IMG/VR virus record: IMGVR_UViG_3300036852_000353
Span: 80,435 to 111,555 of that record
Source: a virus
Length of the DNA stretch: 31,121 nucleotides
Reading direction: 5' to 3' (one strand)
Shown here: positions 1 through 16,567 of the stretch, one piece after another
Numbering within the stretch: position 1 is the first letter of the stretch
Layout of the letters: each line of letters opens with the position of its first letter
The notes under the pieces: model-generated
The model's input: the letters and a program-made list of their open reading frames with translations, nothing else
Told to the model about the DNA's origin: nothing
Database searches by the model: none
Position numbers and translations under genes: made by a program

Positions 1-1856
1 GCGATGGTTCCCTTGCCGGAACGTTCCGGGCCCTGCAGCATCAGGGCTTTCTGCAGATCGGTCCGGCCGGAGATGATGTAGCCGAACCATTCCTGGATCA
101 TGCTGATGCTGGCCGGGTCGTGCTCGAACGTCTCCTCCAACCACGCTTGCCACTGTGGACAGATGGCTTTCCCGTCGTAGGCGAAGGGGACACTGGAGAA
201 CGTGAAGTAGGACGGGTCCGCGGGCGCAAGTTCTCGTCCGGCAACGCGCAGCAGACCGTTGGTGCAAGAGACGGCCAGATCGTGGACACCCTCGCCGATC
301 ATTGTGTTCTGCTGGGTGTCGTCACGCAGGTTGACGGCGGCACGCAGTGCCTTGTCGAGGTTGTTGATGTTGGCGTTGCCGGGGTTCCACGGAACCTCGG
401 CCCACTCCTTGGTCTGCTTGTCCTGGGCCATCATGTAGGCACGGTCCATGCGCTGGTACAGCCATGAGGTGACGTCGGCGTCCGACATGACGGACCAGCA
501 GGAGCCGTCCCAGCGCACCCACATGTCCTGCCAGCGCATGAGGGTGGGCTTGCCATTATGCAGGAAGAAGGCGTCTCTGAGTTCGGTGGCGACACTGTAA
601 GGCTTCTTGTCGCTCGGAGCGCGGAAGTCATCATCGATTCCGGGAAGCCTGACATCGGTGAGCATTTCCGTCTGCTCTACGGGTGCGGCCACCGCCTGCA
701 CGGAGGGTTCCTCCGTTTTCGGGACATCGACTGCCTGTTCCACGACGGCGGCACCTTCGACCACCTGTCCGTTGCCGTCCACCTGTCCGCCCCACATGTC
801 CTCACGGGTCTCGGTGCGGGTGAAGTTCTTCCAGACGAACGGCTGCTTGAGGCCCGCCTTGGCACTGTTGACGGTGGCGCGGACCTCGGACTCATCGAGT
901 CCGGCGTCCAGGCCCGCGGTGGTGAACTCCCGCTCCACGTCCACCGGATCGAGCTGCCCGGCCCCGGCGTACTGGTAGGACATGTAGGCCAGGCGGTTGA
1001 GCGCGTTGTTCCGCTCGAACGTCGTGGCGCGCATCTCGGCGAGGTGGTGTTCGAAGCGGGCGCGGGCGTCCTTGGCGGGCTCGCCGCTGAACTGGACGGT
1101 ACGCCGCGCGGGCTTGGGAGGCACCGGGCAGGCGGCCTCCAGCTCGTCCAGGGTGTAGCGCTCGCCGGAGGACATGTACGCCGTACGGCGCCGGTTGTTC
1201 CAGTCCTTGGCGTTGATGGTGCCCGGGATCCGCAGCACACGTGCGAGATCGCGGGCCTCCGTGCCGTACTTGTACCCCATCTTCGCGGCGGTCGCCTCGA
1301 TGCGCTGATGCCACCGCCGGGAGAGCGCGCTGACACGCATGCGCAGCTCGGGGTCGGTGATGTCGAGCGGCTCGGCCAGCTTGACGATGTGGTAGAAGCC
1401 GCCGCCGGAGTGCACGGTGAGGGACGCCTCGGGCAGACCGGAGACGTCGTACACAGCCTGCGCGGCGGCGGCATCCGGCGGCAGCTTGTCGGCCGCGTGG
1501 CCAACGGTGCCGAAGTCCAGGTCCGTCCACAGGGCAATGAGGCTGGCCGACTGGTTGATCCGTCCGCGAGCATGGGGGTTGTCGGGGGTCCGCGGGTCCT
1601 CGGTCAGCGTCGTGATGCGGGCGTAGATGCTCTGCTGACCGTCGACGTTGCCTGCGACCTCGACGAAGGTGACGGCCTGCTCGATGCCCTCTTCATCGGT
1701 GGGGAAGAACCGCCCCGACTTCTGGTGGGGCGTCGTCCAGATCTGGAGAAGACCCGGGACACCGAGGTACATTTCCGTCAGATAAGCGCGAACCGTGTCC
1801 CGGTCGACCGTCAGGGAGGGTGATGCAACGTGACGCTGGTCAACATCCGTACCCAT
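1..1856 (-). CDS. Primase-helicase (AEP primase N-terminus + D5/P4-type SF3 helicase), 3' end runs off the window; possible upstream in-frame TTG start at 1982
   Basis: Translated by hand (absent from ORF track because it is truncated): AEP-like motifs WTDLDFG, VHSGGGFYHIVK and DLARVLRIPGTIN; D5-type segment IQEWFGYIISGRTDLQKALMLQGPERSGKGTI (Walker A) at the window edge. Confidence 0.9.
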   Translation of the reverse strand, partial: MGTDVDQRHVASPSLTVDRDTVRAYLTEMYLGVPGLLQIWTTPHQKSGRFFPTDEEGIEQAVTFVEVAGNVDGQQSIYARITTLTEDPRTPDNPHARGRINQSASLIALWTDLDFGTVGHAADKLPPDAAAAQAVYDVSGLPEASLTVHSGGGFYHIVKLAEPLDITDPELRMRVSALSRRWHQRIEATAAKMGYKYGTEARDLARVLRIPGTINAKDWNNRRRTAYMSSGERYTLDELEAACPVPPKPARRTVQFSGEPAKDARARFEHHLAEMRATTFERNNALNRLAYMSYQYAGAGQLDPVDVEREFTTAGLDAGLDESEVRATVNSAKAGLKQPFVWKNFTRTETREDMWGGQVDGNGQVVEGAAVVEQAVDVPKTEEPSVQAVAAPVEQTEMLTDVRLPGIDDDFRAPSDKKPYSVATELRDAFFLHNGKPTLMRWQDMWVRWDGSCWSVMSDADVTSWLYQRMDRAYMMAQDKQTKEWAEVPWNPGNANINNLDKALRAAVNLRDDTQQNTMIGEGVHDLAVSCTNGLLRVAGRELAPADPSYFTFSSVPFAYDGKAICPQWQAWLEETFEHDPASISMIQEWFGYIISGRTDLQKALMLQGPERSGKGTI

Positions 1857-1978
1857 CAGGTTGACAACGGGGCCCCGCTCCCCCAAAAATGGTTCTCGTC
1901 GCAAGTTGACACGATGCGTCGAGACGGAAGATGCTGGCTGGTTTAGCCTGCTAACATCTGTCTCATCCGGAATAGTCG

Positions 1979-2056
1979 TCAATTCCCTGCCTCCGCCCTC
2001 TGCGGCGGGGCGGCGGGCATGGTGAGGTGATTGATAGGCCGGTAAGTTGTAGGCAT
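1979..2056 (-). CDS. Putative 25-aa leader peptide (MPTTYRPINHLTMPAAPPQRAEAGN) upstream of the primase
   Basis: AAAGGA RBS upstream; its TGA overlaps a TTG (TTGA) that is in frame with the primase. Confidence 0.45.
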   Translation of the reverse strand: MPTTYRPINHLTMPAAPPQRAEAGN

Positions 2057-2542: not shown

Positions 2543-2577
2543 AGGGTGGTTCCCTTCCTTGTCGGTGGTGCGATGTT

Positions 2578-2991
2578 TCACGTGGAACCAGCGATGCGCC
2601 GGAGCTTCTTCAGAGCAGCCCTCGACGTGCTTGTCAGGGCGGACTCCTCGACATCGCCGATCAGCTTCAGCAACGCCCGCGCTTCCTCATACCTCAGCGG
2701 CTTCAGCGGCCGGGGCCCTCGGTTGCCGCCCGAGTGGGAACAGCGCGTTCGCCGGTCACTGAACTCCGGGTCTAGCTCGCTGCGCCACTGCCGGTAGTCG
2801 TCCTGCGCAACGAGGTTGTTCAGAGTGACAGTGACTTCTGCGCCACACAGAAGACAACGCGCTGGCCAGCGGGCGTTTGTGTCGCCGGGGTACTCTGCGG
2901 TGGACGCGTACTCGTTGCGGTCCAGTACTGCGGAACGCTCCGCCTCGCTCAGATCACGTGCGTAGTTGCGTGGCCGGTCAATGTACGCCAC
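2578..2991 (-). CDS. Hypothetical protein, possible Zn-ribbon
   Basis: YPG..WPARCLLCG motif plus distal CSH; stop codon lies inside a parS site. Confidence 0.75.
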   Translation of the reverse strand: MAYIDRPRNYARDLSEAERSAVLDRNEYASTAEYPGDTNARWPARCLLCGAEVTVTLNNLVAQDDYRQWRSELDPEFSDRRTRCSHSGGNRGPRPLKPLRYEEARALLKLIGDVEESALTSTSRAALKKLRRIAGST

Positions 2992-3002
2992 GGTTCTCCT
3001 CT

Positions 3003-3233
3003 CTATGTTTCACGTGGAACATCGACCGGCTCGTTCTTGATGACGATCCGGTGGGTGCGCTGGCCGTCGGCGTACTGCGCCGTGACCAGCAAGTCACCGG
3101 TGCCTGGGTCGTTCTCCATGGACAGAATCTGGCCGCCGGACGTCTCAGGGTGTGCGGACAGTTCGTTGCGGATCTTCGTACGCAGCTCGATGAATGCGTC
3201 TCGGCTGTTCATGAGTTCCTTGTAGGTAGGCAC
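3003..3233 (-). CDS. Hypothetical protein
   Basis: 76-aa ORF ending VPRET (parS-encoded). Confidence 0.75.
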   Translation of the reverse strand: MPTYKELMNSRDAFIELRTKIRNELSAHPETSGGQILSMENDPGTGDLLVTAQYADGQRTHRIVIKNEPVDVPRET

Positions 3234-3394
3234 TACGCCTCGACGATCTCCAGGAAGAACAGCTCGCCGCTACTCTCATCCTCCACGCCGATCACTTCCT
3301 TGACACCCGTGCCGTCGATGGGTGACGCGTTGAGGGTGCTGGTCTCGCGGTTGATGGTGCGGATCAGCAGATCGCGCAGATCGCTCTTGGTCAT
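3233..3394 (-). CDS. Hypothetical protein
   Basis: GAAAGGAA RBS before ATG 3394; stop overlaps next start. Confidence 0.7.
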   Translation of the reverse strand: MTKSDLRDLLIRTINRETSTLNASPIDGTGVKEVIGVEDESSGELFFLEIVEA

Positions 3395-3431
3395 GGTGTT
3401 CCTTTCGGCGGTGGTCTTCCTGGTGGATGTT

Positions 3432-3911
3432 TCACGTGGAACATGGCGCGATGCCGCGCTCGGCACGGAACTCGTTGATGGCCGCGGTGCAGCAGACCGG
3501 CTCGCCGATCACGCTGAGGCCATCCTCCTGCCCGAACTCCGACACCTCGCTGTTGTTCCACAACTCCTCCCACTGGCGATCGCAGTGGGAGCAGTAGTCA
3601 TACCCGTCAGACTCGATGCGCGCCTCGATGACGTTCGGGTGCTGCAGCATGCCGCCGCGCAGCACTTCGCAGCGCTTCTGGTAATCGCCCTCAATGTCAC
3701 GACTGATAAGGCTGTCGCTCATGGAGAGACCCATGCCGACGTCACCGAGGCGTTTCGGCAGGATGGTCAGCTCGAACTGCTGACCCCAGACCAGCCCTTC
3801 GAGGGGGTCGCCCCACGTGTCTTTGAATCCGAGGCTGGCGATGGACATGTGGGTCTTCTGGGGACGCACGACTGCGACGACCTGCCAGTTGTCCCGCTTG
3901 GTTTTCTTCAT
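3432..3911 (-). CDS. Hypothetical protein with CxxC and CC motifs
   Basis: AAGGAG RBS; YCSHC and PVCC motifs; stop within parS. Confidence 0.8.
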   Translation of the reverse strand: MKKTKRDNWQVVAVVRPQKTHMSIASLGFKDTWGDPLEGLVWGQQFELTILPKRLGDVGMGLSMSDSLISRDIEGDYQKRCEVLRGGMLQHPNVIEARIESDGYDYCSHCDRQWEELWNNSEVSEFGQEDGLSVIGEPVCCTAAINEFRAERGIAPCST

Positions 3912-3914
3912 GGA

Positions 3915-4220
3915 TCACTCCTTGGTTTCACGTGGAACATCGCCCTTGCCGTGTGCTGTGGTTGTAGCGGATCCGGCCTTGTACCCGGCCGCCCACATAC
4001 GGGCGAGGAGATCCCGAAGCAGTGCGGCCTTGCTGCCAGGACCGTTGAGCAGGTCCAGCATGAGCGAAGACCGAGTCACTGCCACGGCTGCTGCACACGC
4101 CATCGCGTGGAGTTCATCGCGCTCGACGGGGCAGCCGGGCGGCAAGCTGATCCAGTCCTGGCCGTCCAGCATGGCGTCGAAATAGGAGAAGGCGATGTCA
4201 CCAGCACTTTCCGTGCTCAC
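3915..4220 (-). CDS. Hypothetical protein
   Basis: GTGA overlap with upstream gene; GGAGG RBS; ends VPRETKE. Confidence 0.7.
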   Translation of the reverse strand: MSTESAGDIAFSYFDAMLDGQDWISLPPGCPVERDELHAMACAAAVAVTRSSLMLDLLNGPGSKAALLRDLLARMWAAGYKAGSATTTAHGKGDVPRETKE

Positions 4221-4408
4221 GCTTCCTCCGATGTTTCACGTGGAACATTCGCGGCGCCGTTGCCGACGAGGTGGTTCCAGAACTGTTCGGAGTGGCTGGG
4301 ATCACCGCCGTACTCCGCCCAGGCCTCGACGATGGTGGCCTGCAGCATGGCGACCACCGGGTAGGGCATCTCGGCGGGCGGTATGATGACGGCGGGGATT
4401 TCAGGCAT
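4217..4408 (-). CDS. Hypothetical protein
   Basis: AGGAG RBS directly after parS; ends VPRETSEEA. Confidence 0.7.
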   Translation of the reverse strand: MPEIPAVIIPPAEMPYPVVAMLQATIVEAWAEYGGDPSHSEQFWNHLVGNGAANVPRETSEEA

Positions 4409-4435
4409 GTCGGCTCCTATGTTTCACGTGGAACA

Positions 4436-5251
4436 TCAGCCGATGCTCCGGGCGGCCAGCTCGCGTGCGGCCTCGCGGTAGGCCTTCGCGCCCTTGCCGG
4501 TCGTGTCATAGGTCAGGATCGTCTCGCCGTGGCTGGGCGCTTCGCCCATCTTGGTCGAGCGGGGGATCTTGGCCTCCATGATCTGCTCGGGGAAGTATGC
4601 GCGTACCTCCTTCGCGACCTCCCGGGACAGCCGGATCGACGGGTTGAACATCGTCAGCAGCACCAGGGAGATGCGCAGCTCCTGGTTGAGATGCTGCTGC
4701 ACAGTGCCAATCGTCTTCATCAGCAGGCTGACGCCTTCCAGCGCGTAGTACTCGCACTGGATCGGCATGAGGACCTCCCGCCCAGCCGTCAGCGCGTTGA
4801 CGGTGAGCAGACCCAGGCTCGGTGGGCAGTCGATGAGGATGTAGTCGAACGGCATCTCACTGGCCTCGATGGCGTTCTTCAGCCGGTTCTCCCGGGAGAC
4901 CAGAGAGACCAGCTCGATCTCCGCACCGGCGAGGTCGATGTGGGACGGCACGCAGTAGAGATTCTTCGAGAACGCCGTCTCCTGCATGACGTCGTCCAGC
5001 GGCTTGCTGTCGATGAGGACGTTGTAGACGGACAGCATGTCGTCGCTGTGATGGTCGATCCCGAGTGCGGTGGACGCGTTGCCCTGCGGGTCGAGATCGA
5101 TGATCAGGACGGCGTTGCCGTACTCAGCGAGCGACGCACCGAGGTTGACCGTGCTGGTGGTCTTGCCGACGCCGCCCTTCTGGTTGGCGACGACGAGGAT
5201 GCGGGTCTGCTCCGGGCGCGGCAGGAGGGTGCCGGGGATTCCGGTGGTCAT
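4436..5251 (-). CDS. parA: ParA/Soj-family partition ATPase, chromosomal type
   Basis: Deviant Walker A NQKGGVGKTT, IDLDPQGNAS, Walker B YILIDCPPSLG, PIQCEYYALEG, EAPSHG. Confidence 0.97.
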   Translation of the reverse strand: MTTGIPGTLLPRPEQTRILVVANQKGGVGKTTSTVNLGASLAEYGNAVLIIDLDPQGNASTALGIDHHSDDMLSVYNVLIDSKPLDDVMQETAFSKNLYCVPSHIDLAGAEIELVSLVSRENRLKNAIEASEMPFDYILIDCPPSLGLLTVNALTAGREVLMPIQCEYYALEGVSLLMKTIGTVQQHLNQELRISLVLLTMFNPSIRLSREVAKEVRAYFPEQIMEAKIPRSTKMGEAPSHGETILTYDTTGKGAKAYREAARELAARSIG

Positions 5252-5314
5252 GGTGGTGTCCTTTGCTGGTGGTGATGTTTCACGTGGAACATCGAATGTT
5301 CTGGGCGGCCAGCC

Positions 5315-5626
5315 TCAGCCGACGTAGACGATCGTGTCGGCGCGCATCAGGAACGCGGTGGGGGTCTCGCCCTCGCAGGTGCCCCAGCACTCTTCGTTGC
5401 CAGTGCAGCCATCGGGACAGGAAGGCGCGGCGGCGGAGACGATCTCGACCGTTGTGTCTTCACGTTGTGCCGTGGTCAGGGGGATGAGCCAGTGGTCTTC
5501 GCCGTAGAAGCGGTGGTCATCGACTCCTTCCAGAGCGAAGACCGTCGCGGTCCACGGGGCGGTGGTGCCATCGCCTCCCATCTGGTGGTGGTAGGCGGCG
5601 GTGATCTTTCCGGAGTAGCCGGGCAT
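5315..5626 (-). CDS. Hypothetical protein, Cys-containing
   Basis: GAAAGGAA RBS; CPDGC..CWGTC. Confidence 0.75.
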   Translation of the reverse strand: MPGYSGKITAAYHHQMGGDGTTAPWTATVFALEGVDDHRFYGEDHWLIPLTTAQREDTTVEIVSAAAPSCPDGCTGNEECWGTCEGETPTAFLMRADTIVYVG

Positions 5627-5663
5627 CGTGTTCCTTTCAGTGGTGATGTTTCACGTGGAACAT

Positions 5664-5945
5664 TCAGTTGTCATCGGTGTTCCGGCCGACGAGATTCGAC
5701 AGCAGCTCAATGATCTGGGCCTGGTTGCGGTCGATCTTCGAGTTCAGTTCACGGACCTCATCAGTGAGCCTCCCTACCTTCTGGTCCAGGCTGTCCACCT
5801 TCTGGTCGACGTTGCTCACCTTGAGCTGGAGCGTCGTCAGCTCGCTCTTGATGATCCCGAACTCACGAACGTTCTGTGCCTGAGCCTCTTCGAACCGGCG
5901 AGTCAGCGCAGCGATCTCGGCCTGTGCGATCTCGTCTTCGGGCAT
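5664..5945 (-). CDS. Coiled-coil protein
   Basis: Heptads VDQKVDSLDQKVGRLTDEVRELNSKIDRN; AGGAG RBS. Confidence 0.8.
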   Translation of the reverse strand: MPEDEIAQAEIAALTRRFEEAQAQNVREFGIIKSELTTLQLKVSNVDQKVDSLDQKVGRLTDEVRELNSKIDRNQAQIIELLSNLVGRNTDDN

Positions 5946-5976
5946 GGTGTTCTCCTATGTTTCACGTGGAACATCG

Positions 5977-6162
5977 TCAGTCGTCGGGGTTGCACTGGTG
6001 GCTGTAGACCACCATCCGCGCATCGGACTTGCCGAAGGAACCGAGACCGTGCAGGTCGTAGACCATGCCGGTACGGAACCCGCACGGGGTGTGGATGAGA
6101 TGGACCAGGTGCGGGAAGTAGCCGCCGCCGCTCTCGGCCCGCCAGTCAGGTGGTAGTTGCAT
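5977..6162 (-). CDS. Hypothetical protein
   Basis: GAGGAG RBS; bounded by parS on both sides. Confidence 0.7.
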   Translation of the reverse strand: MQLPPDWRAESGGGYFPHLVHLIHTPCGFRTGMVYDLHGLGSFGKSDARMVVYSHQCNPDD

Positions 6163-6183
6163 GAGTGTCTCCTCGTCGATGTT

Positions 6184-6498
6184 TCACGTGGAACGTTCGC
6201 TGGCCCGCTCCGCCTTCAGTTCCTTCTCGTACTGAGTGAGAGCGGTAGCGTAGGAGTCGAGGCGGCGGCCGACGGCCTGGTTCGTAAGGTCACCACGGCG
6301 CTTCCACCCATCCTGGGTGTGGCAGACGGCGTCCTTGGGTGCGCCTTCCTCCTCTGCCTCTATACAGGCACGGGCGACATAGTCAGCGCGCAGACCGCCA
6401 TCGACCAGATAGGCAACGAGGTAGCGGTAGCCGCGGTGGCGGGCGGGGTTGGTGACGTGCTGGTCGCCGGTCCCATAGGGCGGCTTGAAGGTGGGCAT
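6184..6498 (-). CDS. Hypothetical protein
   Basis: GAGAGGA RBS; stop within parS. Confidence 0.75.
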   Translation of the reverse strand: MPTFKPPYGTGDQHVTNPARHRGYRYLVAYLVDGGLRADYVARACIEAEEEGAPKDAVCHTQDGWKRRGDLTNQAVGRRLDSYATALTQYEKELKAERASERST

Positions 6499-6507
6499 GA
6501 TGTCCTC

Positions 6508-6732
6508 TCAGTCGGTGGATGTTTCACGTGGAACATCGGACAGCTCGCCATCCCCCAGCGTGAAAGCACGTGGAGTACCGGCATTCCAGGCGTCGATGAA
6601 CGGCTGCGCCCTGGCCTGCATGCCATGATGCTTGAACCGGTGGAAAGCCACGCCGTCAGTGCCCACCCAGAAGAGGGTGCCGTCGTACACCCCAGGCTGC
6701 TCCACGCCATAGGCGATCTCGCGCTCAGCCAT
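6508..6732 (-). CDS. Hypothetical protein
   Basis: GGAG RBS before ATG 6732 (MAEREIAY...); ends VPRETSTD. Confidence 0.7.
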   Translation of the reverse strand: MAEREIAYGVEQPGVYDGTLFWVGTDGVAFHRFKHHGMQARAQPFIDAWNAGTPRAFTLGDGELSDVPRETSTD

Positions 6733-7000
6733 CGCCCGGCTCCGATGTTTCACGTGGAACATTGGCGATGGATCGGTCCCAGCCCTCTCGCCAGGGAGAA
6801 GTGCTGGTGTAACCCAGCTCAACAGAGAGCGCTTCGGCGAGATCCGAGACGATGCGGTAGGCATCGTCGGACAGCTCCTCCCACCTCTCGTCGCTCTCGT
6901 CGATCTGCTCGTACTCCGCCTGCTGGCGGTCGGCGTCCCAGTCCACGACTTGCTGAAGTAGGAGGCGGACGGAGGGGGTGAGTTCACCGATCTTGTTCAT
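6725..7000 (-). CDS. Hypothetical acidic protein
   Basis: ATG 7000 (MNKIGEL...); ends VPRETSEPGDG. Confidence 0.7.
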   Translation of the reverse strand: MNKIGELTPSVRLLLQQVVDWDADRQQAEYEQIDESDERWEELSDDAYRIVSDLAEALSVELGYTSTSPWREGWDRSIANVPRETSEPGDG

Positions 7001-7157
7001 GGGCGGTGCTTTCTGTTGGTGTTTCACGTGGAACATCGTTGTCGGGTGGGATGACCAACTTCGGCAGGCGGACGCCAGGGTCCGGAGTAATCAGGCCGAA
7101 GGCCCAGCCCAGGAGGCGGCACCAGTAGTGGGCGATCGCCTCCCTGAGTTCACTCAC
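6984..7157 (-). CDS. Hypothetical protein
   Basis: GGGAGG RBS before GTG 7157; contains VPRET. Confidence 0.6.
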   Translation of the reverse strand: MSELREAIAHYWCRLLGWAFGLITPDPGVRLPKLVIPPDNDVPRETPTESTAHEQDR

Positions 7158-7404
7158 CGGCGCCTCCCGATGTTTCACGTGGAACATCGGCCCGACGGAA
7201 GTACTCCGCCCACACCTCACGTTCCTCGTCCGTCATGGTGGTGTCAGGCTTGCGGTGCAGGAACACCGTGTGGCCGCAGACGCCGCCAACGGTCATGTAG
7301 GTGCAGCCGGGAGCACACTCCATGATCGTGACGTCTTTTGTTTCGTCGCACTCGTCCGCCGGGCAGACTGGCCACGCCTTCCAGGCGTCGAGCGGCTCAC
7401 TCAC
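7150..7404 (-). CDS. Hypothetical Cys-rich protein
   Basis: GGAG RBS before GTG 7404; CPADEC, CAPGC, CGH. Confidence 0.7.
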   Translation of the reverse strand: MSEPLDAWKAWPVCPADECDETKDVTIMECAPGCTYMTVGGVCGHTVFLHRKPDTTMTDEEREVWAEYFRRADVPRETSGGAGE

Positions 7405-7732
7405 CGGCGGACTCCGATGTTTCACGTGGAACATTGCTCTGCTCGCGAAGCGCGTAGTAGAGCCGCTTCGCAGTGGCGTTGTCATTCACGAAGGTGCGCA
7501 GAGCCTGCTGAGCTGCCGGTGTACGGACGCGCTGCTGGTGGGTCCAGAAGAGGGCGAGCGCGATCCCGATGTCCTGCTCGGTCATCTTCACGCGCCACTT
7601 GTGACCGCTGTTATGCGCACGGTGGAGTGGCCCGACGAGGTCAGCGGTCGGCCCCACATGCCTGCTCTCGGGGCTGCTGGTCATGTTGAGCAGGATCTGG
7701 AACTGCCCGGGGGTCAGGCTGATTTCTTCCAT
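7397..7732 (-). CDS. Hypothetical protein
   Basis: AAGGA RBS before ATG 7732; ends VPRETSESAGE. Confidence 0.75.
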   Translation of the reverse strand: MEEISLTPGQFQILLNMTSSPESRHVGPTADLVGPLHRAHNSGHKWRVKMTEQDIGIALALFWTHQQRVRTPAAQQALRTFVNDNATAKRLYYALREQSNVPRETSESAGE

Positions 7733-7757
7733 GGGTGTCCTTGGTAGTGGGGATGTT

Positions 7758-8012
7758 TCACGTGGAACATTCAGGAGCTGGATCCTGATTGTTCCAGTAG
7801 TCGTTGTCCTGGCGGGCAGCTTCCCGCGGGGTGAGGCCGTCCCCCTCGGCGATGCGCTTGCGCTGGACGTAGACGAGGCGTTCGGCCCGGATGTCCTCAT
7901 AGAGGCGCCCCTCCCACCACACGCACATGCTGCATCCGGTGCAGTAGTCGTGATCGTAGGGATCTTCCCAGTCGCCGTACTTCAGGCCATAGGGGTCAAA
8001 GGTTGTGGTCAT
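7758..8012 (-). CDS. Hypothetical protein
   Basis: AAGGAGG RBS; CTGCSMC; stop within parS. Confidence 0.75.
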   Translation of the reverse strand: MTTTFDPYGLKYGDWEDPYDHDYCTGCSMCVWWEGRLYEDIRAERLVYVQRKRIAEGDGLTPREAARQDNDYWNNQDPAPECST

Positions 8013-8051
8013 AGCCCCTCCTTGCAGCGGGCTTCCTTGTCGGTGGTGTGG

Positions 8052-8429
8052 TTACAGCGGGCACTTCTCGCAGTGCATGGGCTTGCCGTCGGACTTGCGG
8101 ACCAGCTGGCCGTCGCGGATCTCGTAGGGGTCGATGATGTCGGCCGCGATTTCGAGTACGTGAATGGTCTGGGGAACAATGCTGGAGTCTTCGAACGCGC
8201 TCTCCGCCGTCTTCACGTGGTGCGCCTCCTCGCGGAGCTTCTCCGCCTCACGGTGCGCACGGTCGTCCTCGACCCAGTTGAGCAGGCCGTGGAGGTAGTC
8301 GTCGTCCTCGCTGCCGCCCTCGACCGCCTGGTAGCCGTTGTGGTCCTTGGGGTGGTGGGCGATCTCCTGCCTGGCCGTGCGCGCCGTCTTGTTGACGAAG
8401 TTGTAGACCAGGTCACGGGCTACGCTCAT
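8052..8429 (-). CDS. Hypothetical protein
   Basis: GGAGGAG RBS; ATGA overlap. Confidence 0.8.
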   Translation of the reverse strand: MSVARDLVYNFVNKTARTARQEIAHHPKDHNGYQAVEGGSEDDDYLHGLLNWVEDDRAHREAEKLREEAHHVKTAESAFEDSSIVPQTIHVLEIAADIIDPYEIRDGQLVRKSDGKPMHCEKCPL

Positions 8430-8734
8430 GTCTCCTCCTTCTCGTATCCCTCGCCACGGAGGTCGGCCTTCGCGATGATCTCGCTGGCCACGTCGACCGC
8501 GGCCAGGAGCGTGCGGTCGCAGAACTCCCCGAAGAAATAGGAGTGGCCGACGCTGTATAGGTGCCAGCCGGTCTGTGAGCCGGGCTCCTTACGGGAGCGG
8601 GCCCGCTTCTCCAGTTCGTAGACCATGCCGAACACCTCGGTCTGCCGGTTGCCGTTGGGCAGGCAGATCCAGCCGAAGCCGTTGTCGGCCTCGATGTAGC
8701 GGACGTTGTCGGCCTGTCGGTAGCGGGCCATCAC
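8426..8734 (-). CDS. Hypothetical protein
   Basis: AGGAG RBS; coupled to neighbours. Confidence 0.8.
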   Translation of the reverse strand: MMARYRQADNVRYIEADNGFGWICLPNGNRQTEVFGMVYELEKRARSRKEPGSQTGWHLYSVGHSYFFGEFCDRTLLAAVDVASEIIAKADLRGEGYEKEET

Positions 8735-9057
8735 TTCTCCTGCGGCAGACGGACGACGACGTCATAGAACGTGATCTCACGGTCGTCGTCCTCATGGACT
8801 TCAGTGCTGGTCCCTACTGAATCCACCTCGACCCACACGCCAGCTAGGCAGATCTCCTGGCCTTCCCCGAAAGCCATGGGTTGACGGCTCTCGGTCCAGC
8901 CCAGCGACGTGCGCGTCGGCTGACCGTTCGTATCGAAGATCGGGTAGGAGTACTCAGCGAGGTGCGTGTAAGGGTCCGGCGATTCATTCATGAACCTGGA
9001 GTCAGAGATCTTCCTGATGGGATCAGGAAGCTGATCTCGGAAATAGTCCGGCAGCAT
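8731..9057 (-). CDS. Hypothetical protein
   Basis: GGAGG RBS; start uncertain (9057, 9060 or 9072). Confidence 0.7.
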   Translation of the reverse strand: MLPDYFRDQLPDPIRKISDSRFMNESPDPYTHLAEYSYPIFDTNGQPTRTSLGWTESRQPMAFGEGQEICLAGVWVEVDSVGTSTEVHEDDDREITFYDVVVRLPQEK

Positions 9058-9088
9058 CACGCCTCCGTACACCGGCGGTAGCGGGCCA

Positions 9089-9547
9089 TCAGACGCTGTC
9101 CACGATGCGCTGCCAGTCCTCGATCAGCCGGTCCGGCGGCGCTTGCTTTAGGGCGTAGGTCTCGGTGAAACGCTCCAGCAGCTCACGCGACGCGTGCCCA
9201 CGACGGGCATGGATGCCGTGGTTGGGTGCACCACAGGTGCATGCTTCGGGGTTGGTGTGCCGGTAGAAGATGTGGGTGGTGAGATGATGATCCCTGCCGA
9301 CGGATTCGATCTCCACCACGTCGTCCGGGTTCCCGCGCCGGTACCAGAGGTGCCCGGCCTTCGGCTCCACCGGAGCGGAGAGCGCCGTCAGGCGGCCCTC
9401 GATCTTGCCCTGCGACAGGATGGCGTCGAGCATGCCACGCACCACTGACAAGCCGTCGACGTCGTCTACCGTGTCTTCAGTGATCAAGCTCAAGACGTTG
9501 TCGTACAGCTTCTCGGTCCTGAGGTGGCGCTGGATCTGGCCGGTCAT
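9089..9547 (-). CDS. Hypothetical protein
   Basis: AAGGAGG RBS; ATGA overlap. Confidence 0.8.
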   Translation of the reverse strand: MTGQIQRHLRTEKLYDNVLSLITEDTVDDVDGLSVVRGMLDAILSQGKIEGRLTALSAPVEPKAGHLWYRRGNPDDVVEIESVGRDHHLTTHIFYRHTNPEACTCGAPNHGIHARRGHASRELLERFTETYALKQAPPDRLIEDWQRIVDSV

Positions 9548-9774
9548 GATTCCTCCTTGGTCTCGGCCCAGGCGGTGAACGCCTGACCGATCTGATCGGC
9601 CTTGTCAGGGCTGAGCACCAGCTCCTTGATGCCGGGGTCCACGGTGATGGCGTGCCGCGAGAACCAGAAGACGGTTCCCGAATGATCGGGGGTGACTTCC
9701 ACCTCGACACTTTCGCCCTGCCGGATCAGCTCGACGATCTCCTCGGTGGTGAGGCGTCCGTTCTTGTCGGGCAT
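9544..9774 (-). CDS. Hypothetical protein
   Basis: TGATG coupling. Confidence 0.75.
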   Translation of the reverse strand: MPDKNGRLTTEEIVELIRQGESVEVEVTPDHSGTVFWFSRHAITVDPGIKELVLSPDKADQIGQAFTAWAETKEES

Positions 9775-10100
9775 CAGAGCTTCACCATCCGGCGGTCCGC
9801 CGCCATGCGTTCACGGGCGGCGGTCTCGCTGTCGAAGTCGTACGTCCACTTGCGAGCGCCGAGCCAGGTCTCCACGGCGTACCGGAACTCGCCGGAGCGG
9901 GGGTCGCGGTAGTAGGTCAGATCGACCTCACATTCGGGGCCCTGGGACCAGTGCTTCTGATACTCCGATGCCACGAAGGTGATCAGACGTCCCTGGGCGA
10001 TGGCTTCGATGATCTCCTGCGCCTCCTCGTCGGTGACGTCGGGCTCCTCGTAGTTGCCGTAGGTGGCGCTCTGGATGATGCGCTTGTCCGGCAGGGTCAC
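9774..10100 (-). CDS. Hypothetical protein
   Basis: AAGGAGG RBS before GTG 10100 (GTGA overlap). Confidence 0.75.
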   Translation of the reverse strand: MTLPDKRIIQSATYGNYEEPDVTDEEAQEIIEAIAQGRLITFVASEYQKHWSQGPECEVDLTYYRDPRSGEFRYAVETWLGARKWTYDFDSETAARERMAADRRMVKL

Positions 10101-10396
10101 TGCCGTTCCTCCTTCTTCGGCTTGATGATGTCGTCGAGTTCGTGCAGGTTGAGGGGCTCGTAGCCGAGTTCCTTCTCCAGCTCGGCGGTCTTCTGGCGGC
10201 TGGCCTCCAGCTGCCGCTGCCGTTTGGTCTCCGGGTCCACTGTGAACACGGACCAGAAGATCCAGGGCACCATCACGCCCACACCTGTGGCGTAGGCGAT
10301 GGTCAACAGCGGGTTGTTGTGCAGGTGCGGGGTGAAAAGGGAGGACCAGGCGGCTGGCATCACGAGCCAGATTCCCTTGAGGCGGGGGATCTTCAT
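10097..10396 (-). CDS. Small membrane protein
   Basis: Two hydrophobic segments then charged tail; coupled to PadR gene. Confidence 0.75.
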   Translation of the reverse strand: MKIPRLKGIWLVMPAAWSSLFTPHLHNNPLLTIAYATGVGVMVPWIFWSVFTVDPETKRQRQLEASRQKTAELEKELGYEPLNLHELDDIIKPKKEERQ

Positions 10397-10719
10397 GAGG
10401 CCCTCCGCCTCTTGATGTCGGCGCGGTCCTTGACCGTTTCCTGCCGGGCGACGGCCCAGCCCTCGGAAGTGAGGGCGTAGTAGCGCCGGGGCGGCCCGCC
10501 CCGGCTGCGGGGCCTGTAGCTGGGCTGGCCACGGCGTCCCTCCCGTCGCGAGATCAGCCAGCCTGCTTCTTCCAGGCGGTTGAGGATGGGGTATGCGGTG
10601 CCGGGGGCCAGGCCGGTGGCATGGATGACCTGGCGGCCGTACAGCTCGGTGTCCGGGTCGTCGTGGTCCTTGAGGAACGCGGCCAGGACCATGCGGGTTT
10701 GCAGGGTCAGGTTAGGCAT
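10393..10719 (-). CDS. PadR-family winged-helix transcriptional regulator
   Basis: ELYGRQV..GLAPGTAYPILNRLEEAGWL..RRYYALTSEG signature. Confidence 0.9.
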   Translation of the reverse strand: MPNLTLQTRMVLAAFLKDHDDPDTELYGRQVIHATGLAPGTAYPILNRLEEAGWLISRREGRRGQPSYRPRSRGGPPRRYYALTSEGWAVARQETVKDRADIKRRRAS

Positions 10720-10725
10720 GTGGGG

Positions 10726-10731
10726 AGACTA
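10726..10731 (-). promoter_or_regulatory. -10 element TAGTCT giving a leaderless PadR transcript
   Basis: TAGTCT 6 nt before ATG, no RBS. Confidence 0.55.
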
Positions 10732-10761
10732 CTCTATCTATCGAGTTTGGGTGGAAGGGGA

Positions 10762-10784
10762 GGCGGCCGGTTGCCCCGGCCGCC
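10762..10784 (-). terminator. GC-rich hairpin
   Basis: GGCGGCCGG-N5-CCGGCCGCC just after stop at 10797. Confidence 0.5.
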
Positions 10785-10796
10785 CCTGTGTGCAGG

Positions 10797-11099
10797 TCAG
10801 TTGTCGATGCTGCCGTTCATGTGGCCGTCGTCGTAGTAGTCCAGCATGTCACGGTCCTCCTGCGGCAGGCTGTCGATCGCGCTGCTCAGGACGAGCGCGG
10901 TGTAGTCGTCGTCCTTCACGTCCTTGCAGGCGGCAGGCTTGCCCTTCTCGTCGTTGTACAGCTGCGCGGTGATCGCCTTCTGGCAGGCCTTCAGGGTGTC
11001 CTCGTACGACGGCTTGCCCAGCCAGACCATGACGCCGGTGATACCACCGGCGAGCGTGACGGCGACGGCCAGGGCGAGCACAGCGGTGCGGCGATGCAT
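10797..11099 (-). CDS. Secreted or membrane-anchored protein
   Basis: Basic N-terminus + hydrophobic stretch; two Cys. Confidence 0.8.
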   Translation of the reverse strand: MHRRTAVLALAVAVTLAGGITGVMVWLGKPSYEDTLKACQKAITAQLYNDEKGKPAACKDVKDDDYTALVLSSAIDSLPQEDRDMLDYYDDGHMNGSIDN

Positions 11100-11109
11100 G
11101 ACGTCTCCC

Positions 11110-11682
11110 CTAGTCCCAGCCGCCGAGCAGGCCCGGACTCAGCTGCGCGTCACAGATGTTGTAGCCGCCGGAGGCGTGGCCCTTCTTCGTCTTGCCGTCG
11201 ACGGTCACCGAGCAGTTGATGTCGCCGGAGCCCTGGAGCTGGGCGTTCAGGGTGTAGTACAAGGCGTCCTTGTCCAGCGGCAGGGTGGCCGTGAAGGTGC
11301 CGTTCTTGAAGGATCCCTTGCGGCTGTCGGAGTCCGAGCCGTAGCTGATGTCGAGGGAGCCGAGGGCGCCTGCGGGGGCGTTGCCCCAGACCTTGAAGGT
11401 GACGACGTCCGGCTTCTTCACCGGCGCCGGGGTGTGCTTCTTCGTCGGCTTGGTGGCGGTGTGCTTCGGCAGCGGGGTGTCCTTCGTGGCGGCCGGGGCG
11501 GCGCTGCTGGCGTTCTTCGGGCCGTCGTCATCGGAGGAGGTGATCGCGGCCACGAAGCCGCCGAACACAATGAGGGCCACGACGCTGCCGCAGCCGATGG
11601 CGGCGATCTTGCCCGCCGTATTCTTCTTCGGGGGCCGCGGCGGCTGTGGCGCCCACTGCTGGTAGTTGGGGTCGTAGGACAT
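11110..11682 (-). CDS. Membrane-anchored protein with MmpS-like C-terminal domain
   Basis: Pro-rich N-terminus, one TM helix, linker, then NAQLQGSGDINCSVTVDG..C. Confidence 0.75.
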   Translation of the reverse strand: MSYDPNYQQWAPQPPRPPKKNTAGKIAAIGCGSVVALIVFGGFVAAITSSDDDGPKNASSAAPAATKDTPLPKHTATKPTKKHTPAPVKKPDVVTFKVWGNAPAGALGSLDISYGSDSDSRKGSFKNGTFTATLPLDKDALYYTLNAQLQGSGDINCSVTVDGKTKKGHASGGYNICDAQLSPGLLGGWD

Positions 11683-11728
11683 GGTGCCTTCCTTGTCGGT
11701 GAGGGTGGTGTGCAGACTATCGGTTCGG

Positions 11729-12181
11729 TCAGCGACGGTTGCGCCGCTTCGACCACTTCTTGTGACGGGGCAGGTGGCGCATGTTCAGCCCCTTGGTCTC
11801 CTGCTCGGCGGCCTCGGCAGCGGCAAGGACGGCAGCCTTGATGGCCTTGTACTCAGCCTTGCGGGGCTTGGCCTCGCGGACGACCTGGATGACCTGGTCG
11901 AGGGTGTAGTGGTAGACGCGCAGCCCCTTGCGGCGCCGGACACTGCGCTCGACGGGCGCCCCGGTGATGGCGTCCCGCAGCTTGACGATCTGGTGCCGCT
12001 TCTCCCTGGACGTCATCTTGGTGCGGTGGACCTTGGCCGGGCGCAGCTTCAGACGCTTGCGGGCGGTGTCGCAGGAACCATCGACGAAGTCGCGGGCGAG
12101 GGGCGCGTCCACGCCGGAGAGGCGCATGACGTGGGTGACGAACGAGCGGGGCCGGTCGGTGGTGTGGCTGGCGGCAGCCAT
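11729..12181 (-). CDS. Highly basic hypothetical protein (possible nucleic-acid binding)
   Basis: GAAGGG RBS before ATG 12181; Arg/Lys-rich. Confidence 0.75.
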   Translation of the reverse strand: MAAASHTTDRPRSFVTHVMRLSGVDAPLARDFVDGSCDTARKRLKLRPAKVHRTKMTSREKRHQIVKLRDAITGAPVERSVRRRKGLRVYHYTLDQVIQVVREAKPRKAEYKAIKAAVLAAAEAAEQETKGLNMRHLPRHKKWSKRRNRR

Positions 12182-12264
12182 GATGGTACCCTTCTGATGT
12201 TTGGTGTTGATCACCGCGCGCCTTGGCGGGCGGTGCCATCTACGTCGGTGGATGGAATGTGCAG

Positions 12265-12298
12265 CGAAGCCCCCGGGACGCCGATCCCGGGGGCTTCG
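12265..12298 (-). terminator. 14-bp stem-loop, probable terminator
   Basis: CGAAGCCCCCGGGA-N6-TCCCGGGGGCTTCG, intergenic. Confidence 0.7.
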
Positions 12299-12332
12299 TG
12301 TTGTGTGTCCGGTTGTGGTGTACCGCTGGGCG

Positions 12333-12584
12333 TCAGGTCTTCTCCTGTGCCTGCCGGTGCGCAGGCAGGGCCAGGGCGATGTCCACCACCTCCTCCAGGG
12401 TGCTGCGCAGCACCCACGGATCGTTCGGGCTGTTGTAGGGGCGCACCCCCCAGCGCTGGTAGTACCCGTTGCTCATGAATCTGCGGACGGTGGCGGTGTA
12501 GACGTCGCTGCCCGTGGGCCTGACGTGGTAGACGTACGTGCCGTCCTTGTGGAGGGTGCAGTTGTCCCGTTTCAGTCGGGTCAT
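12333..12584 (-). CDS. Hypothetical protein
   Basis: AAGGAAG RBS before ATG 12584. Confidence 0.75.
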   Translation of the reverse strand: MTRLKRDNCTLHKDGTYVYHVRPTGSDVYTATVRRFMSNGYYQRWGVRPYNSPNDPWVLRSTLEEVVDIALALPAHRQAQEKT

Positions 12585-12606
12585 GATGGCTTCCTTGACA
12601 GTCTGC

Positions 12607-13134
12607 TCAGACAGACGCGGAGGCGCGGCGCTGTTCGATGGCCTCACGCCAAAGCTGCGTCAGGATGCCGTAGTTCTGGGGAGACCATTCGTGATCGTCC
12701 AGGCGGAATCCGTACGCGGTGTAGGCGTCCACGTCGAGGCCGAGCAGTTGCATGCCGTGCTTCCAGGCCCAGCCGTCCGCTTCCTTGCCGCTGTCATGGG
12801 CATACAGCTGCGCCGAGACACAATGGCTTCCCGAGCCGATGTCGAGCGTGCCGGGGTCCACCTCGGTGTGCCAGGAGGGGCGTGTCCTGTTCAGGTACGC
12901 GATGCCCCCGGGGACACGCATCTCAAAGCCGGTGGTGGCAGTGGTCATGGTCATTCCTTTCAGCTCGCCGTCGTCATGCACGGACGGCTCCTTCTCATCC
13001 GGATCCAGCAGCCGGGGCGCCGAGACCAGCATGCCCAGGAACACCACGGCAGCGATCAAGTCCGCGTACCACAGCATGCCCTGAGCGATCAGTTCAGGCG
13101 TCGGCTTGACGGTGTAGGTGTACATACTGGACAT
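12607..13134 (-). CDS. Hypothetical protein with N-terminal TM segment; possible internal start at 12948
   Basis: Single frame; internal AAAGGA RBS before MTT at 12948. Confidence 0.6.
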   Translation of the reverse strand: MSSMYTYTVKPTPELIAQGMLWYADLIAAVVFLGMLVSAPRLLDPDEKEPSVHDDGELKGMTMTTATTGFEMRVPGGIAYLNRTRPSWHTEVDPGTLDIGSGSHCVSAQLYAHDSGKEADGWAWKHGMQLLGLDVDAYTAYGFRLDDHEWSPQNYGILTQLWREAIEQRRASASV

Positions 13135-13139
13135 GGCAG

Positions 13140-13619
13140 TCAGGTGCGGCCGGGCTTGGTGAAGACCCACACGTCGTCACCGTCGTTCACGTCGTCAACC
13201 CAGATCTCAGAGTCACCCATGACGGCGCTCTTGATCCTGCTGCGGCCGTGGTCGTTCAGCCAGTTCCAGCGCACCTGACCGCAGCGCTCTTCGAGGTACT
13301 CGTTCATCGGCCAGGCGAGGTCGGCGTAGCGGGCCGTGAAATGACAGCCCATCTCCTTGACCTGGCCGGGAGTGAGGAACATGCCGCCGTAGTGCTTGCG
13401 AGCGGCCTTCAGTGTGGCCAGGACACCGTCCTCGGTGTCCACACCCTTCCACTCCAAGCTGTAGACGAACTTGAGGGCCACGGCAGCAAGCAGGACGTCA
13501 GGGTTCTTCCCGTCCATCACGGCGTCAACGTCTTCGTCCCTCCACGGCGTGCCGTACAGCTCGGAGTAGAGGACGGACCAGACGGCGGGGATGCTGAAGC
13601 GGGTGTCGTCGGCATTCAT
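13140..13619 (-). CDS. Acidic hypothetical protein, paralog of 18340-18783 (possibly ArdA-like)
   Basis: CGACAAGGAAG motif upstream; shares F..YADL....YLEE....W..D and V[WY]VF..PG. Confidence 0.75.
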   Translation of the reverse strand: MNADDTRFSIPAVWSVLYSELYGTPWRDEDVDAVMDGKNPDVLLAAVALKFVYSLEWKGVDTEDGVLATLKAARKHYGGMFLTPGQVKEMGCHFTARYADLAWPMNEYLEERCGQVRWNWLNDHGRSRIKSAVMGDSEIWVDDVNDGDDVWVFTKPGRT

Positions 13620-13642
13620 GGTGCCTTCCTTGTCGGGGTCAG

Positions 13643-13658
13643 TGTTTCACGTGGAACA
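13643..13658. repeat. parS: parS site
   Basis: Exact TGTTTCACGTGGAACA, intergenic. Confidence 0.9.
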
Positions 13659-13669
13659 TCCACGCGGGG

Positions 13670-13795
13670 TTACTTCTTGGGTGCGGGCGGCGGGGTTGGT
13701 ACGCCGGGGCAGGTGTAGATCTTGCCGTCCCCCGACGGCCAGTCATGGCCGGGGTGCGGGCTGGAGTTGGGACACCGGCCGGGTCCAGCAGACAT
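13670..13795 (-). CDS. Small Cys/His/Pro peptide (41 aa)
   Basis: GAGAGGAA RBS; MSAGPGRCPNSSPHPGHDW..YTCPG. Confidence 0.6.
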   Translation of the reverse strand: MSAGPGRCPNSSPHPGHDWPSGDGKIYTCPGVPTPPPAPKK

Positions 13796-13806
13796 GTGTG
13801 TTCCTC

Positions 13807-14157
13807 TCAGAACGGCGGGCAGCCGTCGGGGTAGGTGTGTTTGCAGGTGCCGTCGCAGTCCGGGTGATGGCCCGGGACGACGGCGATTTGGCGGGGGACC
13901 GGTGCAGCCGGAGCGTGCCACTTCGGATCACCCAGCAGCGAGCACGCAAAGCCGCCGATGACGGCGTCCGTGCTCTTGTCGAAGGTGTCGACCCAGCCGT
14001 AGCCGTCGCATTCAGGGCAGCGTTCCGGCTCGTGGAAGACACCGTCCGGGTTGGCGCCACAGGACACCTCGTTGGCGGCCAATGACACGGGCGGGTCGTC
14101 CTTGGTCAGCTCGTCGGAGCAGTGGATACAGCGTCGAGGAGTCACAGGCTCATTCAT
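13807..14157 (-). CDS. Cys-rich, putative Zn-binding protein
   Basis: CIHC, CPECDGYG and HPDCDGTCKH motifs. Confidence 0.7.
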   Translation of the reverse strand: MNEPVTPRRCIHCSDELTKDDPPVSLAANEVSCGANPDGVFHEPERCPECDGYGWVDTFDKSTDAVIGGFACSLLGDPKWHAPAAPVPRQIAVVPGHHPDCDGTCKHTYPDGCPPF

Positions 14158-14497
14158 CGGAACGGCCAGCGAGGATGTGGTCGGCCAGCGCGAGGGCGGC
14201 AGCACGCGAGCTCGCACCATCGAACGCGCGATTCCACTTGCACTCGTCACGCAGCAGCTGGGACAGCAGCGGCAGGGATGCGGGGCCGAGGGCGAGGAAC
14301 ACCTCGGCGGCGCCGCCCCAGAAGAACTGGGCAACCGTCTGAGTCGGCGACTGGGTCTGTGTGCAGACCAGCCCCACCCGGAAGTCACGGTCGTGGATCA
14401 GGTCGGTGGGGATGTGCTTGCTGCCCGCGTGCAGGTGGTCGAGGTAGTCGGCCGCCTCGATCAGGCGGGCGCTGTCTTGCGTAGCGTCGGTCGTCAT
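14150..14497 (-). CDS. Hypothetical protein
   Basis: CGACAAGGAAG motif upstream. Confidence 0.75.
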   Translation of the reverse strand: MTTDATQDSARLIEAADYLDHLHAGSKHIPTDLIHDRDFRVGLVCTQTQSPTQTVAQFFWGGAAEVFLALGPASLPLLSQLLRDECKWNRAFDGASSRAAALALADHILAGRSDE

Positions 14498-14515
14498 CAC
14501 GCTTCCTTGTCGGTG

Positions 14516-14531
14516 TGTTTCACGTGGAACA
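14516..14531. repeat. parS: parS site
   Basis: Exact 16-mer, intergenic. Confidence 0.9.
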
Positions 14532-14538
14532 TCGTCGG

Positions 14539-14868
14539 TCAGTCGAGGTAGTCGTGGGCCCGCAGATCGGGGTGGACGGCAATGGCGTTGACCACGGCGA
14601 CCACGTCCCCGCCGCGGCGGTGGCGGCCAAGGGCGGTTGTCACCTGGTCGGCCGTCAGGCCACGCTCCAGCAGTGCACCGTAGAGCGTTGCCCGGAGGTC
14701 AGCCTGAACAGCGTCCAGACCCATCACACCCGCCTGGTGCACGGCGCCGATCATGTAGATCAAGTGCAGGCGCTCCTTCTCTTCGAGTTTGGAGTCCTCC
14801 GGGTGGGGACCGGCGGCACGGCGCAGACGGTCGAGGATGTGGCCGGGAGCGGCGGAAACGATCATCAT
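14539..14868 (-). CDS. Hypothetical protein
   Basis: AAGGAGG RBS; ATGA overlap. Confidence 0.75.
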   Translation of the reverse strand: MMIVSAAPGHILDRLRRAAGPHPEDSKLEEKERLHLIYMIGAVHQAGVMGLDAVQADLRATLYGALLERGLTADQVTTALGRHRRGGDVVAVVNAIAVHPDLRAHDYLD

Positions 14869-15056
14869 CCCTCCTTTTTGTGATTGAGGTAGCCGATCAC
14901 GGTGGAAGCAAGTACACCCACGGCCAGGAGGACGGCGACCAGGAGGATGATCAGGACCCAGGCGCCGATCCCGAGGCCGATCCCGCAGCCCTGCGGGTCG
15001 GCCTTGCGCATGTCGGGCGGGCACCAGAAGTCGTGGTACCAGCCGGGGATGATCAT
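14865..15056 (-). CDS. Small membrane protein
   Basis: Long hydrophobic segment; GGAGG RBS. Confidence 0.75.
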   Translation of the reverse strand: MIIPGWYHDFWCPPDMRKADPQGCGIGLGIGAWVLIILLVAVLLAVGVLASTVIGYLNHKKEG

Positions 15057-15247
15057 GCGTCGGCCTCCAGCATCTCGACGAAGCCGTCCCAGGCCAGGCA
15101 GTCGCCCTGATGGAAGTGGGCGTTGACGTAGGCGACGGCGACGAAGTCCGTGATCTCACCGACCGGGATGTGCAGGTGGTTGGCGGTGTAGTGGTAGGCC
15201 GCCTCCAGCTGCTGGCGGGTGCAGTTGCGCAGGATGTTGATGATCAC
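15053..15247 (-). CDS. Hypothetical protein
   Basis: GGAG RBS; GTGA overlap with upstream stop. Confidence 0.7.
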   Translation of the reverse strand: MIINILRNCTRQQLEAAYHYTANHLHIPVGEITDFVAVAYVNAHFHQGDCLAWDGFVEMLEADA

Positions 15248-15881: not shown

Positions 15882-15882
15882 G

Positions 15883-16549: not shown

Positions 16550-16567
16550 CAGTTCTCCTTTTCTCTT

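Follow-up and report, generated by a model that had tools for sequence, protein, structure and literature searches.

The DNA considered here is a stretch of 31,121 nucleotides (the 'window', whose numbering is used unless genome positions are stated). It forms the final 31 kb (positions 80435–111555) of a complete virus record of 111,555 bp, with 64.6% G+C and a terminal repeat of 127 bp. The terminal repeat and the large genome are in line with a circular assembly. The element, so called in an initial annotation of this DNA, is a virus rather than a plasmid.

The parA gene and its genomic setting

The central gene of the locus is parA (4436–5251, minus strand), which starts with ATG, ends with TGA at 4436–4438 and encodes a Soj-type ParA ATPase of 271 aa. 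The reading frame is uninterrupted over its 271 codons and an in-frame start further upstream is impossible. The product matches the Pfam families AAA_31 (3e-61) and CbiA (2e-25) and PHROG 164, annotated as 'ParA-like partition protein' (1e-54), and its closest solved structures are ParA/Soj proteins, namely 8RAY (3e-70) followed by the Soj proteins of H. pylori and T. thermophilus. The characteristic motifs are intact: the deviant Walker A NQKGGVGKTT with its signature lysine, the Walker A' IDLDPQGN and the Walker B LIDCPPSLG. Judged by family, motifs and structure matches, the phage ParA is an intact ATPase of the Soj (chromosomal) type.

Both neighbours of parA are small. Downstream lies an ORF for an acidic product of 63 aa (4217–4408, minus strand), whose C-terminus reads through a copy of the parS site as NVPRETS; its homologues occur in relatives at varying positions and it is thus not a fixed partner of parA. 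This ORF takes the place of parB, which is absent from beside parA, where the host operon carries it. Upstream lies an ORF for a Cys-rich product of 103 aa (5315–5626, minus strand), without a homologue beside ParA in relatives. Neither ORF matches a Pfam or PHROG family, so that their earlier description as tiny, unrelated neighbours stands.

On a larger scale, parA does not form an autonomous par cassette but is embedded in a long, tightly packed run of co-directional early genes, at the end of which stand those for the primase and the helicase. The first large gene downstream of the parS array encodes a D5/P4-type primase (5' part at 1–1982, minus strand), followed in relatives by the helicase. 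The genes of the parA region look early-expressed. Among the ~40 early proteins scanned against Pfam and PHROG, the sole recognisable DNA-binding domain is the HTH of a PadR-like regulator (10393–10719, minus strand), conserved in relatives. Within the early region, a strong GC-rich hairpin with a stem of 15 bp (12264–12299) may mark a transcription boundary. Elsewhere in the genome, at 18.1–18.7 kb (G000:C1:18101–18673; L285:1474–2517; minus strand), lies a gene for a tyrosine-recombinase/integrase-like protein of 347 aa, also conserved in the related genome G406, which may serve in integration or as a dimer resolvase; the search for a serine recombinase found none.

The parS sites of the phage, of its relatives and of the host

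Two copies of a 16-nt parS site, reading TGTTCCACGTGAAACA on the gene strand, bracket parA (both on the minus strand). One (4420–4435) abuts the stop codon and the other (5276–5291) lies 24 nt upstream of the ATG, and the placement of parS directly past the stop and just before the start given in the initial annotation proves correct to the base. These two copies belong to a far larger set. The 14-nt core of the site occurs in 20 exact copies in the window, all in one orientation and all within 2574–18338, detected by a looser two-mismatch search for which the chance expectation is 0.05; the rest of the 111,555-bp genome holds none. The dense part of the array (2574–7769, minus strand) comprises 16 co-oriented copies at small early-gene junctions with parA inside, and the core search adds four co-oriented copies (at 13643, 14516, 16870 and 18323; span 13643–18338, minus strand). 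Each of the 16 copies of the dense part stands 5–30 nt ahead of the next start codon, and the motif often overlaps the 3' end of the ORF before it, being translated there as (D/N)VPRETS. An example of such an in-frame peptide at the C-terminus of the upstream ORF is found at 4233–4246. In relatives, neighbouring small-gene modules are also seen fused via (D/N)VPRETS, as in a 190-aa ORF made of three modules (L081:7814–8386).

The 16-mer is exactly the laboratory parS used for the ParB proteins of B. subtilis and H. pylori, according to a comparison with the literature, and it also belongs to the repertoire of the presumed hosts. Each of five Streptomyces genomes contains 16–22 sites matching GTTNCACGTGNAAC, mostly as the perfect palindrome, and in the three genomes with sites listed in full the exact C variant of the phage makes up roughly 10–25% of them. 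In other words, Streptomyces chromosomes naturally carry the phage 16-mer as a minor variant of parS. The likeness extends beyond the site: across 166 sites of the phage lineage the flanking bases, (G/A)AT...ATCG, agree with those most common around the host sites. With 20 sites against 16–22 on the host, one phage genome equals a whole Streptomyces chromosome in ParB loading sites.

Where the phage sites depart from those of the host is in their uniformity. All but four of the ~190 sites of the lineage share one asymmetric variant and one orientation. A perfect palindrome is found once among these ~190 sites, and not at all in the array of the present phage, versus about 80% of sites in the hosts; its near-absence implies selection against the palindrome. 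This uniformity of variant and orientation is beyond what ParB binding alone accounts for. A coding constraint has been ruled out by hand, as neither the palindrome nor the reverse variant adds a stop in the frame used. As for the mRNA strand, the predicted hairpin of the C variant, with its C·A mismatch, has −3.4 kcal/mol, compared with −7.4 for the reverse variant (G·U) and −7.9 for the perfect site. One hypothesis, which fits both the base and the orientation, is that the asymmetry avoids an mRNA hairpin before ribosome-binding sites.

The association of ParA with the array is conserved. Both occur together in all nine related loci examined (L001, L081–L085, L286, L377 and G406), and in five of them (L081–L085) parS brackets parA at the same positions as in the window. 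In every relative with available DNA, the sites are of this asymmetric variant and are oriented alike with respect to transcription. Copy numbers are 11 in L001, 26 in L081, 18 in L083, 20 in both L084 and L085, and 28 in L377; L082 has 20 copies plus three inverted ones, the latter in true intergenic gaps, and the whole of G406 has 23 copies plus one perfect palindrome. Of the inverted copies of L082 (L082:5376–5425 and 7313–7356), two pair with a sense copy 22–30 nt off, giving long inverted repeats that could act as terminators. The order of genes around ParA is shuffled among L001, L081–L085 and L286, with the motif always at junctions, and families F5, F9 and F10 (AcrVA2-like) lie upstream of ParA in some relatives and downstream in others. 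The parS repeats may double as candidate recombination points for cassette exchange.

Ancestry and remodelling of the phage ParA

The proteins nearest to the phage ParA are 19 metagenomic ParAs of 258–297 aa with 65–97% identity; that of the relative L081/L295, for instance, is 67% identical. Next come the chromosomal ParAs of Streptomyces, Kitasatospora and Streptacidiphilus, with 61–64% identity over 99% of the length in the case of Streptomyces. ParAs from plasmid records reach at most 58%, the best being mislabelled replicons of megabase or chromosome size, and those of viral contigs outside the own lineage at most 49%. The resemblance to the chromosomal rather than the plasmid ParA of Streptomyces, initially noted, is thereby upheld. 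Phylogeny gives the same picture. In a tree of 110 rows, the 21 short ParAs group in a single clade (SH-aLRT 87) nested in the actinomycete chromosomal clade (SH-aLRT 100). A tree joining this clade with the Streptomycetaceae surpasses the free quick tree by 25.6 lnL (p-AU 0.79); the comparison with plasmids is that of the identity ceilings given above. The position of the clade and its AU-tested grouping identify parA as of Streptomycetaceae-type chromosomal origin.

This origin is the part of the proposed capture of a chromosomal ParA that stands. The capture is not a recent one, since a diversified clade of 21 members on phage-like DNA, down to ~65% identity, implies a capture that is old and lineage-wide. 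The context is phage-like for all eight ParA relatives whose surroundings were fetched. Pairwise dN/dS values in the ParA lineage (0.27–0.65) indicate purifying selection, the ratios being probably inflated by a strong GC3 bias that depresses dS.

Since its capture the protein has been altered in two regions and preserved in a third. The N-terminus is short, as had been remarked at the outset: 24 residues precede the Walker A motif in the window ParA, versus 38–144 in Streptomycetaceae ParAs, and no longer in-frame start is available. Short N-termini are general in the clade, with 13–27 residues before Walker A in 18 of the 19 members scored and 51 in the remaining one (P0005). In Mycobacterium smegmatis, ParA contacts DivIVA through its N-terminal segment, which is needed neither for dimerisation nor for binding to ParB, and the ParA of Streptomyces coelicolor interacts with Scy, a protein of the polarisome (PMC7379644).

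The second altered region is the DNA-binding patch, formed in B. subtilis Soj by R189, K201, R215 and R218, equivalent to R182, R194, R208 and R211 of T. thermophilus Soj (PMC6393308). According to work cited in PMC6393308 and PMC7379644, R189 and R218 are the positions at which mutation releases B. subtilis Soj from the nucleoid. In the register verified on the 1WCV alignment, the equivalent of R189 is Arg in all 89 chromosomal ParAs sampled and Ser205 in the window ParA; across the clade, 16 of 21 members have Ser or Ala there and one more has a gap. Close by, 88 of the 89 chromosomal ParAs keep Asp203, against Asn or His in 17 of the 21 clade members. At the equivalent of R218, 11 of 21 carry Gln, and the window ParA has Lys234. 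The full basic patch for non-specific DNA binding is thus incomplete in the window ParA at the R189 position. With the conserved DNA-binding Arg gone, a classical partition role as a nucleoid ratchet is not assured. As the protein retains three of the four basic residues of the patch (R217, R231 and K234), together with an Arg at 207, its DNA binding may have been reduced without being abolished. In two other members of the clade, P0015 (from L081) and P0019, Walker A reads KGGVAK instead of KGGVGK, and ATP turnover may be altered.

The preserved region is the one that faces ParB. In the complex of H. pylori ParA with a ParB peptide, the contact is made by loop L23 (Leu50-Gly51-Phe52; PMC11229316). 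This loop reads DPQGNASTALGIDHH in the window ParA and is identical in 15 of 16 Streptomycetaceae ParAs and in six other clade members, while in other actinobacteria it differs by one to three residues.

Candidate partners and roles of the ParA–parS pair

A ParB encoded by the phage would be the obvious partner. No ParB-like ORF had been noticed in the 31 kb, and this was confirmed for the window in six frames; beyond it, searches of the complete genome with PF02195 (ParB_N) and TIGR00180, again in six frames, gave zero candidates, although the same models scored in most of 14 control genomes (10 and 13, respectively). The relative G406 (116.7 kb, 92% complete) likewise yielded no ParB with both models in six frames; a 12-bit, sub-threshold ParB_N candidate was rejected, the ORF having no supporting domain. 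Neither a GLGRGL-type ParA-activating peptide nor a GERRxRA box (Box II) is present in any frame of the phage genome, and no ParB Pfam domain is found among the called genes at six related loci. An all-against-all comparison of eight related loci revealed no fixed partner gene beside parA; an apparent partner, family F2, was discarded as partly an artefact in which the translated motif joins two unrelated small-protein families. No centromere-binding protein of the phage's own (ParB, or the RHH/ParG type beside ParA) is recognisable, and a non-homologous binder may take this place.

The natural source of ParB is then the host. Since the 16-mer is a natural Streptomyces parS variant, canonical host ParB should load on phage DNA, and we infer, with good support, that the phage borrows host ParB. 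The reading preferred here, in which we place about even confidence, is that the phage ParA, the host-type parS array and host ParB act together to localise or disperse phage genomes within hyphae or into spores. The phage would possess a two-part device, consisting of a diverged, N-terminally trimmed ParA and of 11–28 host-type parS sites at early-gene junctions, without a phage ParB. Host ParB would load on these sites and build ParB complexes on phage DNA; the phage ParA, with its ATP motifs and a contact loop identical to that of the host, would act on these complexes of host ParB and phage DNA; and phage genomes would be placed or spread in multigenomic hyphae or carried into spore compartments. 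Such a process would amount to a phi29-like exploitation of the host segregation machinery with the addition of a motor owned by the phage. As for the organisms concerned, the best explanation, which taken as a composite has an even chance of holding, is a lineage of uncultured soil actinophages of ~105–117 kb with Streptomycetaceae-type actinomycetes as hosts. Searches of 50,697 phage records, by megablast with the region and by tblastn with ParA and the primase, gave only distant matches to cultured phages.

Other roles can be envisaged for the same components. The phage could be a plasmid prophage, that is a low-copy extrachromosomal lysogen in which ParA acts with host ParB on parS for segregation at division or sporulation. 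The retention across the lineage of a partition-type ATPase and of centromere-like sites would fit, as would a large genome whose terminal repeat is consistent with circular assembly and a conserved tyrosine-recombinase gene that could serve as a dimer resolvase like Cre of P1. However, parA has neither promoter nor terminator of its own in a consensus scan (the consensus suits Streptomyces poorly) and sits inside a packed early-gene array, its sites are scattered over 20 gene junctions instead of forming a compact centromere, and its product has lost the DNA-binding Arg. In addition, a primase query of 401 Streptomycetaceae genomes found no close prophage or replicon, with only distant domain-level primase matches, and the related contigs all resemble free phage genomes. 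Plasmid-like partition is on these grounds rather unlikely. A different use of host ParB is suggested by the size of the array and the loss of Arg at the R189 and R218 equivalents in the clade. A nucleoid-blind ParA, stripped of the polar-tether N-terminus and of the invariant DNA-binding Arg while still bearing the ParB-contact loop of the host, might in combination with a centromere-sized array re-route host ParB, and possibly ParA and SMC, to phage DNA, which we consider unlikely. Were it true, host segregation and sporulation would be shut down or phage genomes driven into spores, and it would represent a virus-encoded take-over of the bacterial mitotic apparatus. In a more hostile version, judged improbable, the array would strip ParB from the host origin while the trimmed ParA caps ParB or forms inactive heterodimers with host ParA. 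The effects, to which the same low probability is attached, would be blocked segregation, tip anchoring or sporulation, or a diversion of ParB-dependent SMC loading to phage DNA. For this version speak the match between the 20 phage sites and the 16–22 of a Streptomyces chromosome, the loss of the N-terminal segment that corresponds to the DivIVA-binding part of mycobacterial ParA (PMC7379644), the change of Asp203 to Asn and the same Arg losses in the clade. The parA-region genes also look early-expressed. Yet Streptomyces can do without ParAB in vegetative growth, which makes the benefit to a lytic phage doubtful, and the window ParA keeps three of the four patch residues (R217, R231 and K234) and Arg 207, so that its DNA binding may be only weakened.

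Finally, the motif might have little to do with ParB. It would then be an expression or recombination element of the phage that resembles parS, either a PadR-like 'stoperator' or a cassette junction, with ParA as unrelated cargo. Its strict orientation to transcription, its location 5–30 nt before start codons, the in-frame read-through as (D/N)VPRETS in many ORFs and the shuffled gene order around ParA with the motif at junctions are what such an element would display, and the conserved PadR-like regulator could in principle read an ATGT...ACAT palindrome. PadR operators, however, are described in the literature with a spacing unlike that of the phage motif, and the PadR operator idea ranks low because the flanks of the motif match the host parS consensus. 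With 16 nt identical to bona fide parS and host-like flanks, host ParB would bind regardless. Moreover, the motif always accompanies a chromosomal-type ParA (nine of nine loci), whose gene is bracketed by it. An element independent of ParB is accordingly very unlikely.

Borrowing of host ParB has a precedent. In the work of Meijer et al. (2005), cited in PMC2731898, the Bacillus phage phi29 carries five parS sites, uses host Spo0J and is entrapped in spores. The likeness to the present phage lies in a chromosomal-type parS on a phage genome, the lack of a phage ParB, a spore-forming host and the exploitation of host ParB to move phage DNA, this last point being for the present phage what its sequence suggests. 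The differences are that phi29 has five sites and is described without a ParA of its own, whereas this lineage typically has 20 or more and encodes one, that the sites of this phage lie at gene junctions and nearly all share a single asymmetric form and direction, and that the host belongs to another phylum. Plasmid prophages such as P1 and N15, the mycobacteriophage RedRock and other cluster A phages possess self-contained parABS modules (PMC7157519). They share with the present phage a ParA-family ATPase and centromere repeats on the phage genome, but have their own ParB, an element-specific parS and an autonomous operon, in contrast to the absence of ParB, the parS of the host and the chromosomal-type ParA within an early-gene array found here. 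With the chromosomal ParA–ParB–parS system of Streptomyces, whose ~20 parS sites cluster near oriC, there is agreement in site sequence, approximate site number, loop L23 and 61–64% of ParA residues. That system differs in its sites, which are for the most part perfect palindromes and are scattered across ~200 kb (G005 being an example), in the N-terminal extension of 38–144 aa and the invariant DxR arginine of its ParA, and in the parB that follows parA. To our knowledge, the use of host ParB by a virus is experimentally documented for phi29 alone, and no paper found in the literature describes a phage ParA that goes together with an array of host-type parS sites.

If the preferred reading holds, a whole lineage of large actinophages would invest beyond phi29, with a parS set the size of that of the host chromosome and a remodelled ParA of its own. 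The lineage offers natural experiments on what ParA needs, the nucleoid-binding Arg and polar N-terminus being lost and the ParB-contact loop kept, on the coexistence of ParB–CTP clamps with dense transcription and on the spread or persistence of phages in multigenomic, sporulating hyphae. In practical terms, the device could yield a compact tool for tagging or positioning DNA in Streptomyces by recruitment of host ParB. Overall, the data suggest that hitch-hiking on host ParB in a 'parS-only' or 'ParA plus parS' form may be common among mobile elements.

Sites of the parS type were also seen outside the lineage. Short parS-like matches occur in cultured phages of Microbacterium (65 records), Arthrobacter (40), Gordonia (26) and Bacillus (36, including phi29-like phages), counts in which palindromic sites can score on both strands; in the Arthrobacter phage VroomVroom they are found at seven places. 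Scans of viral and metagenome collections also revealed dense, non-coding tandem arrays on unrelated DNA, seen on metagenome contigs of 23–52% G+C (L333, L346, L334, L403, L373 and L329), that of L333 having 23 copies with a 42-bp period. These non-coding tandem arrays are unlike the gene-junction arrays of the phage lineage, and no ParA or ParB lies near them in the stretches fetched. They may be CPR chromosomal centromeres in some cases and mobile elements riding on host ParB in others. A last group comprises IMG/VR contigs of ~11 kb (3300045988_004033, _013850, _000615 and others; L121, L142 and L153) with two parS sites per end, 42 nt apart and in inverted orientation, an arrangement that suggests small linear elements with terminal parS.
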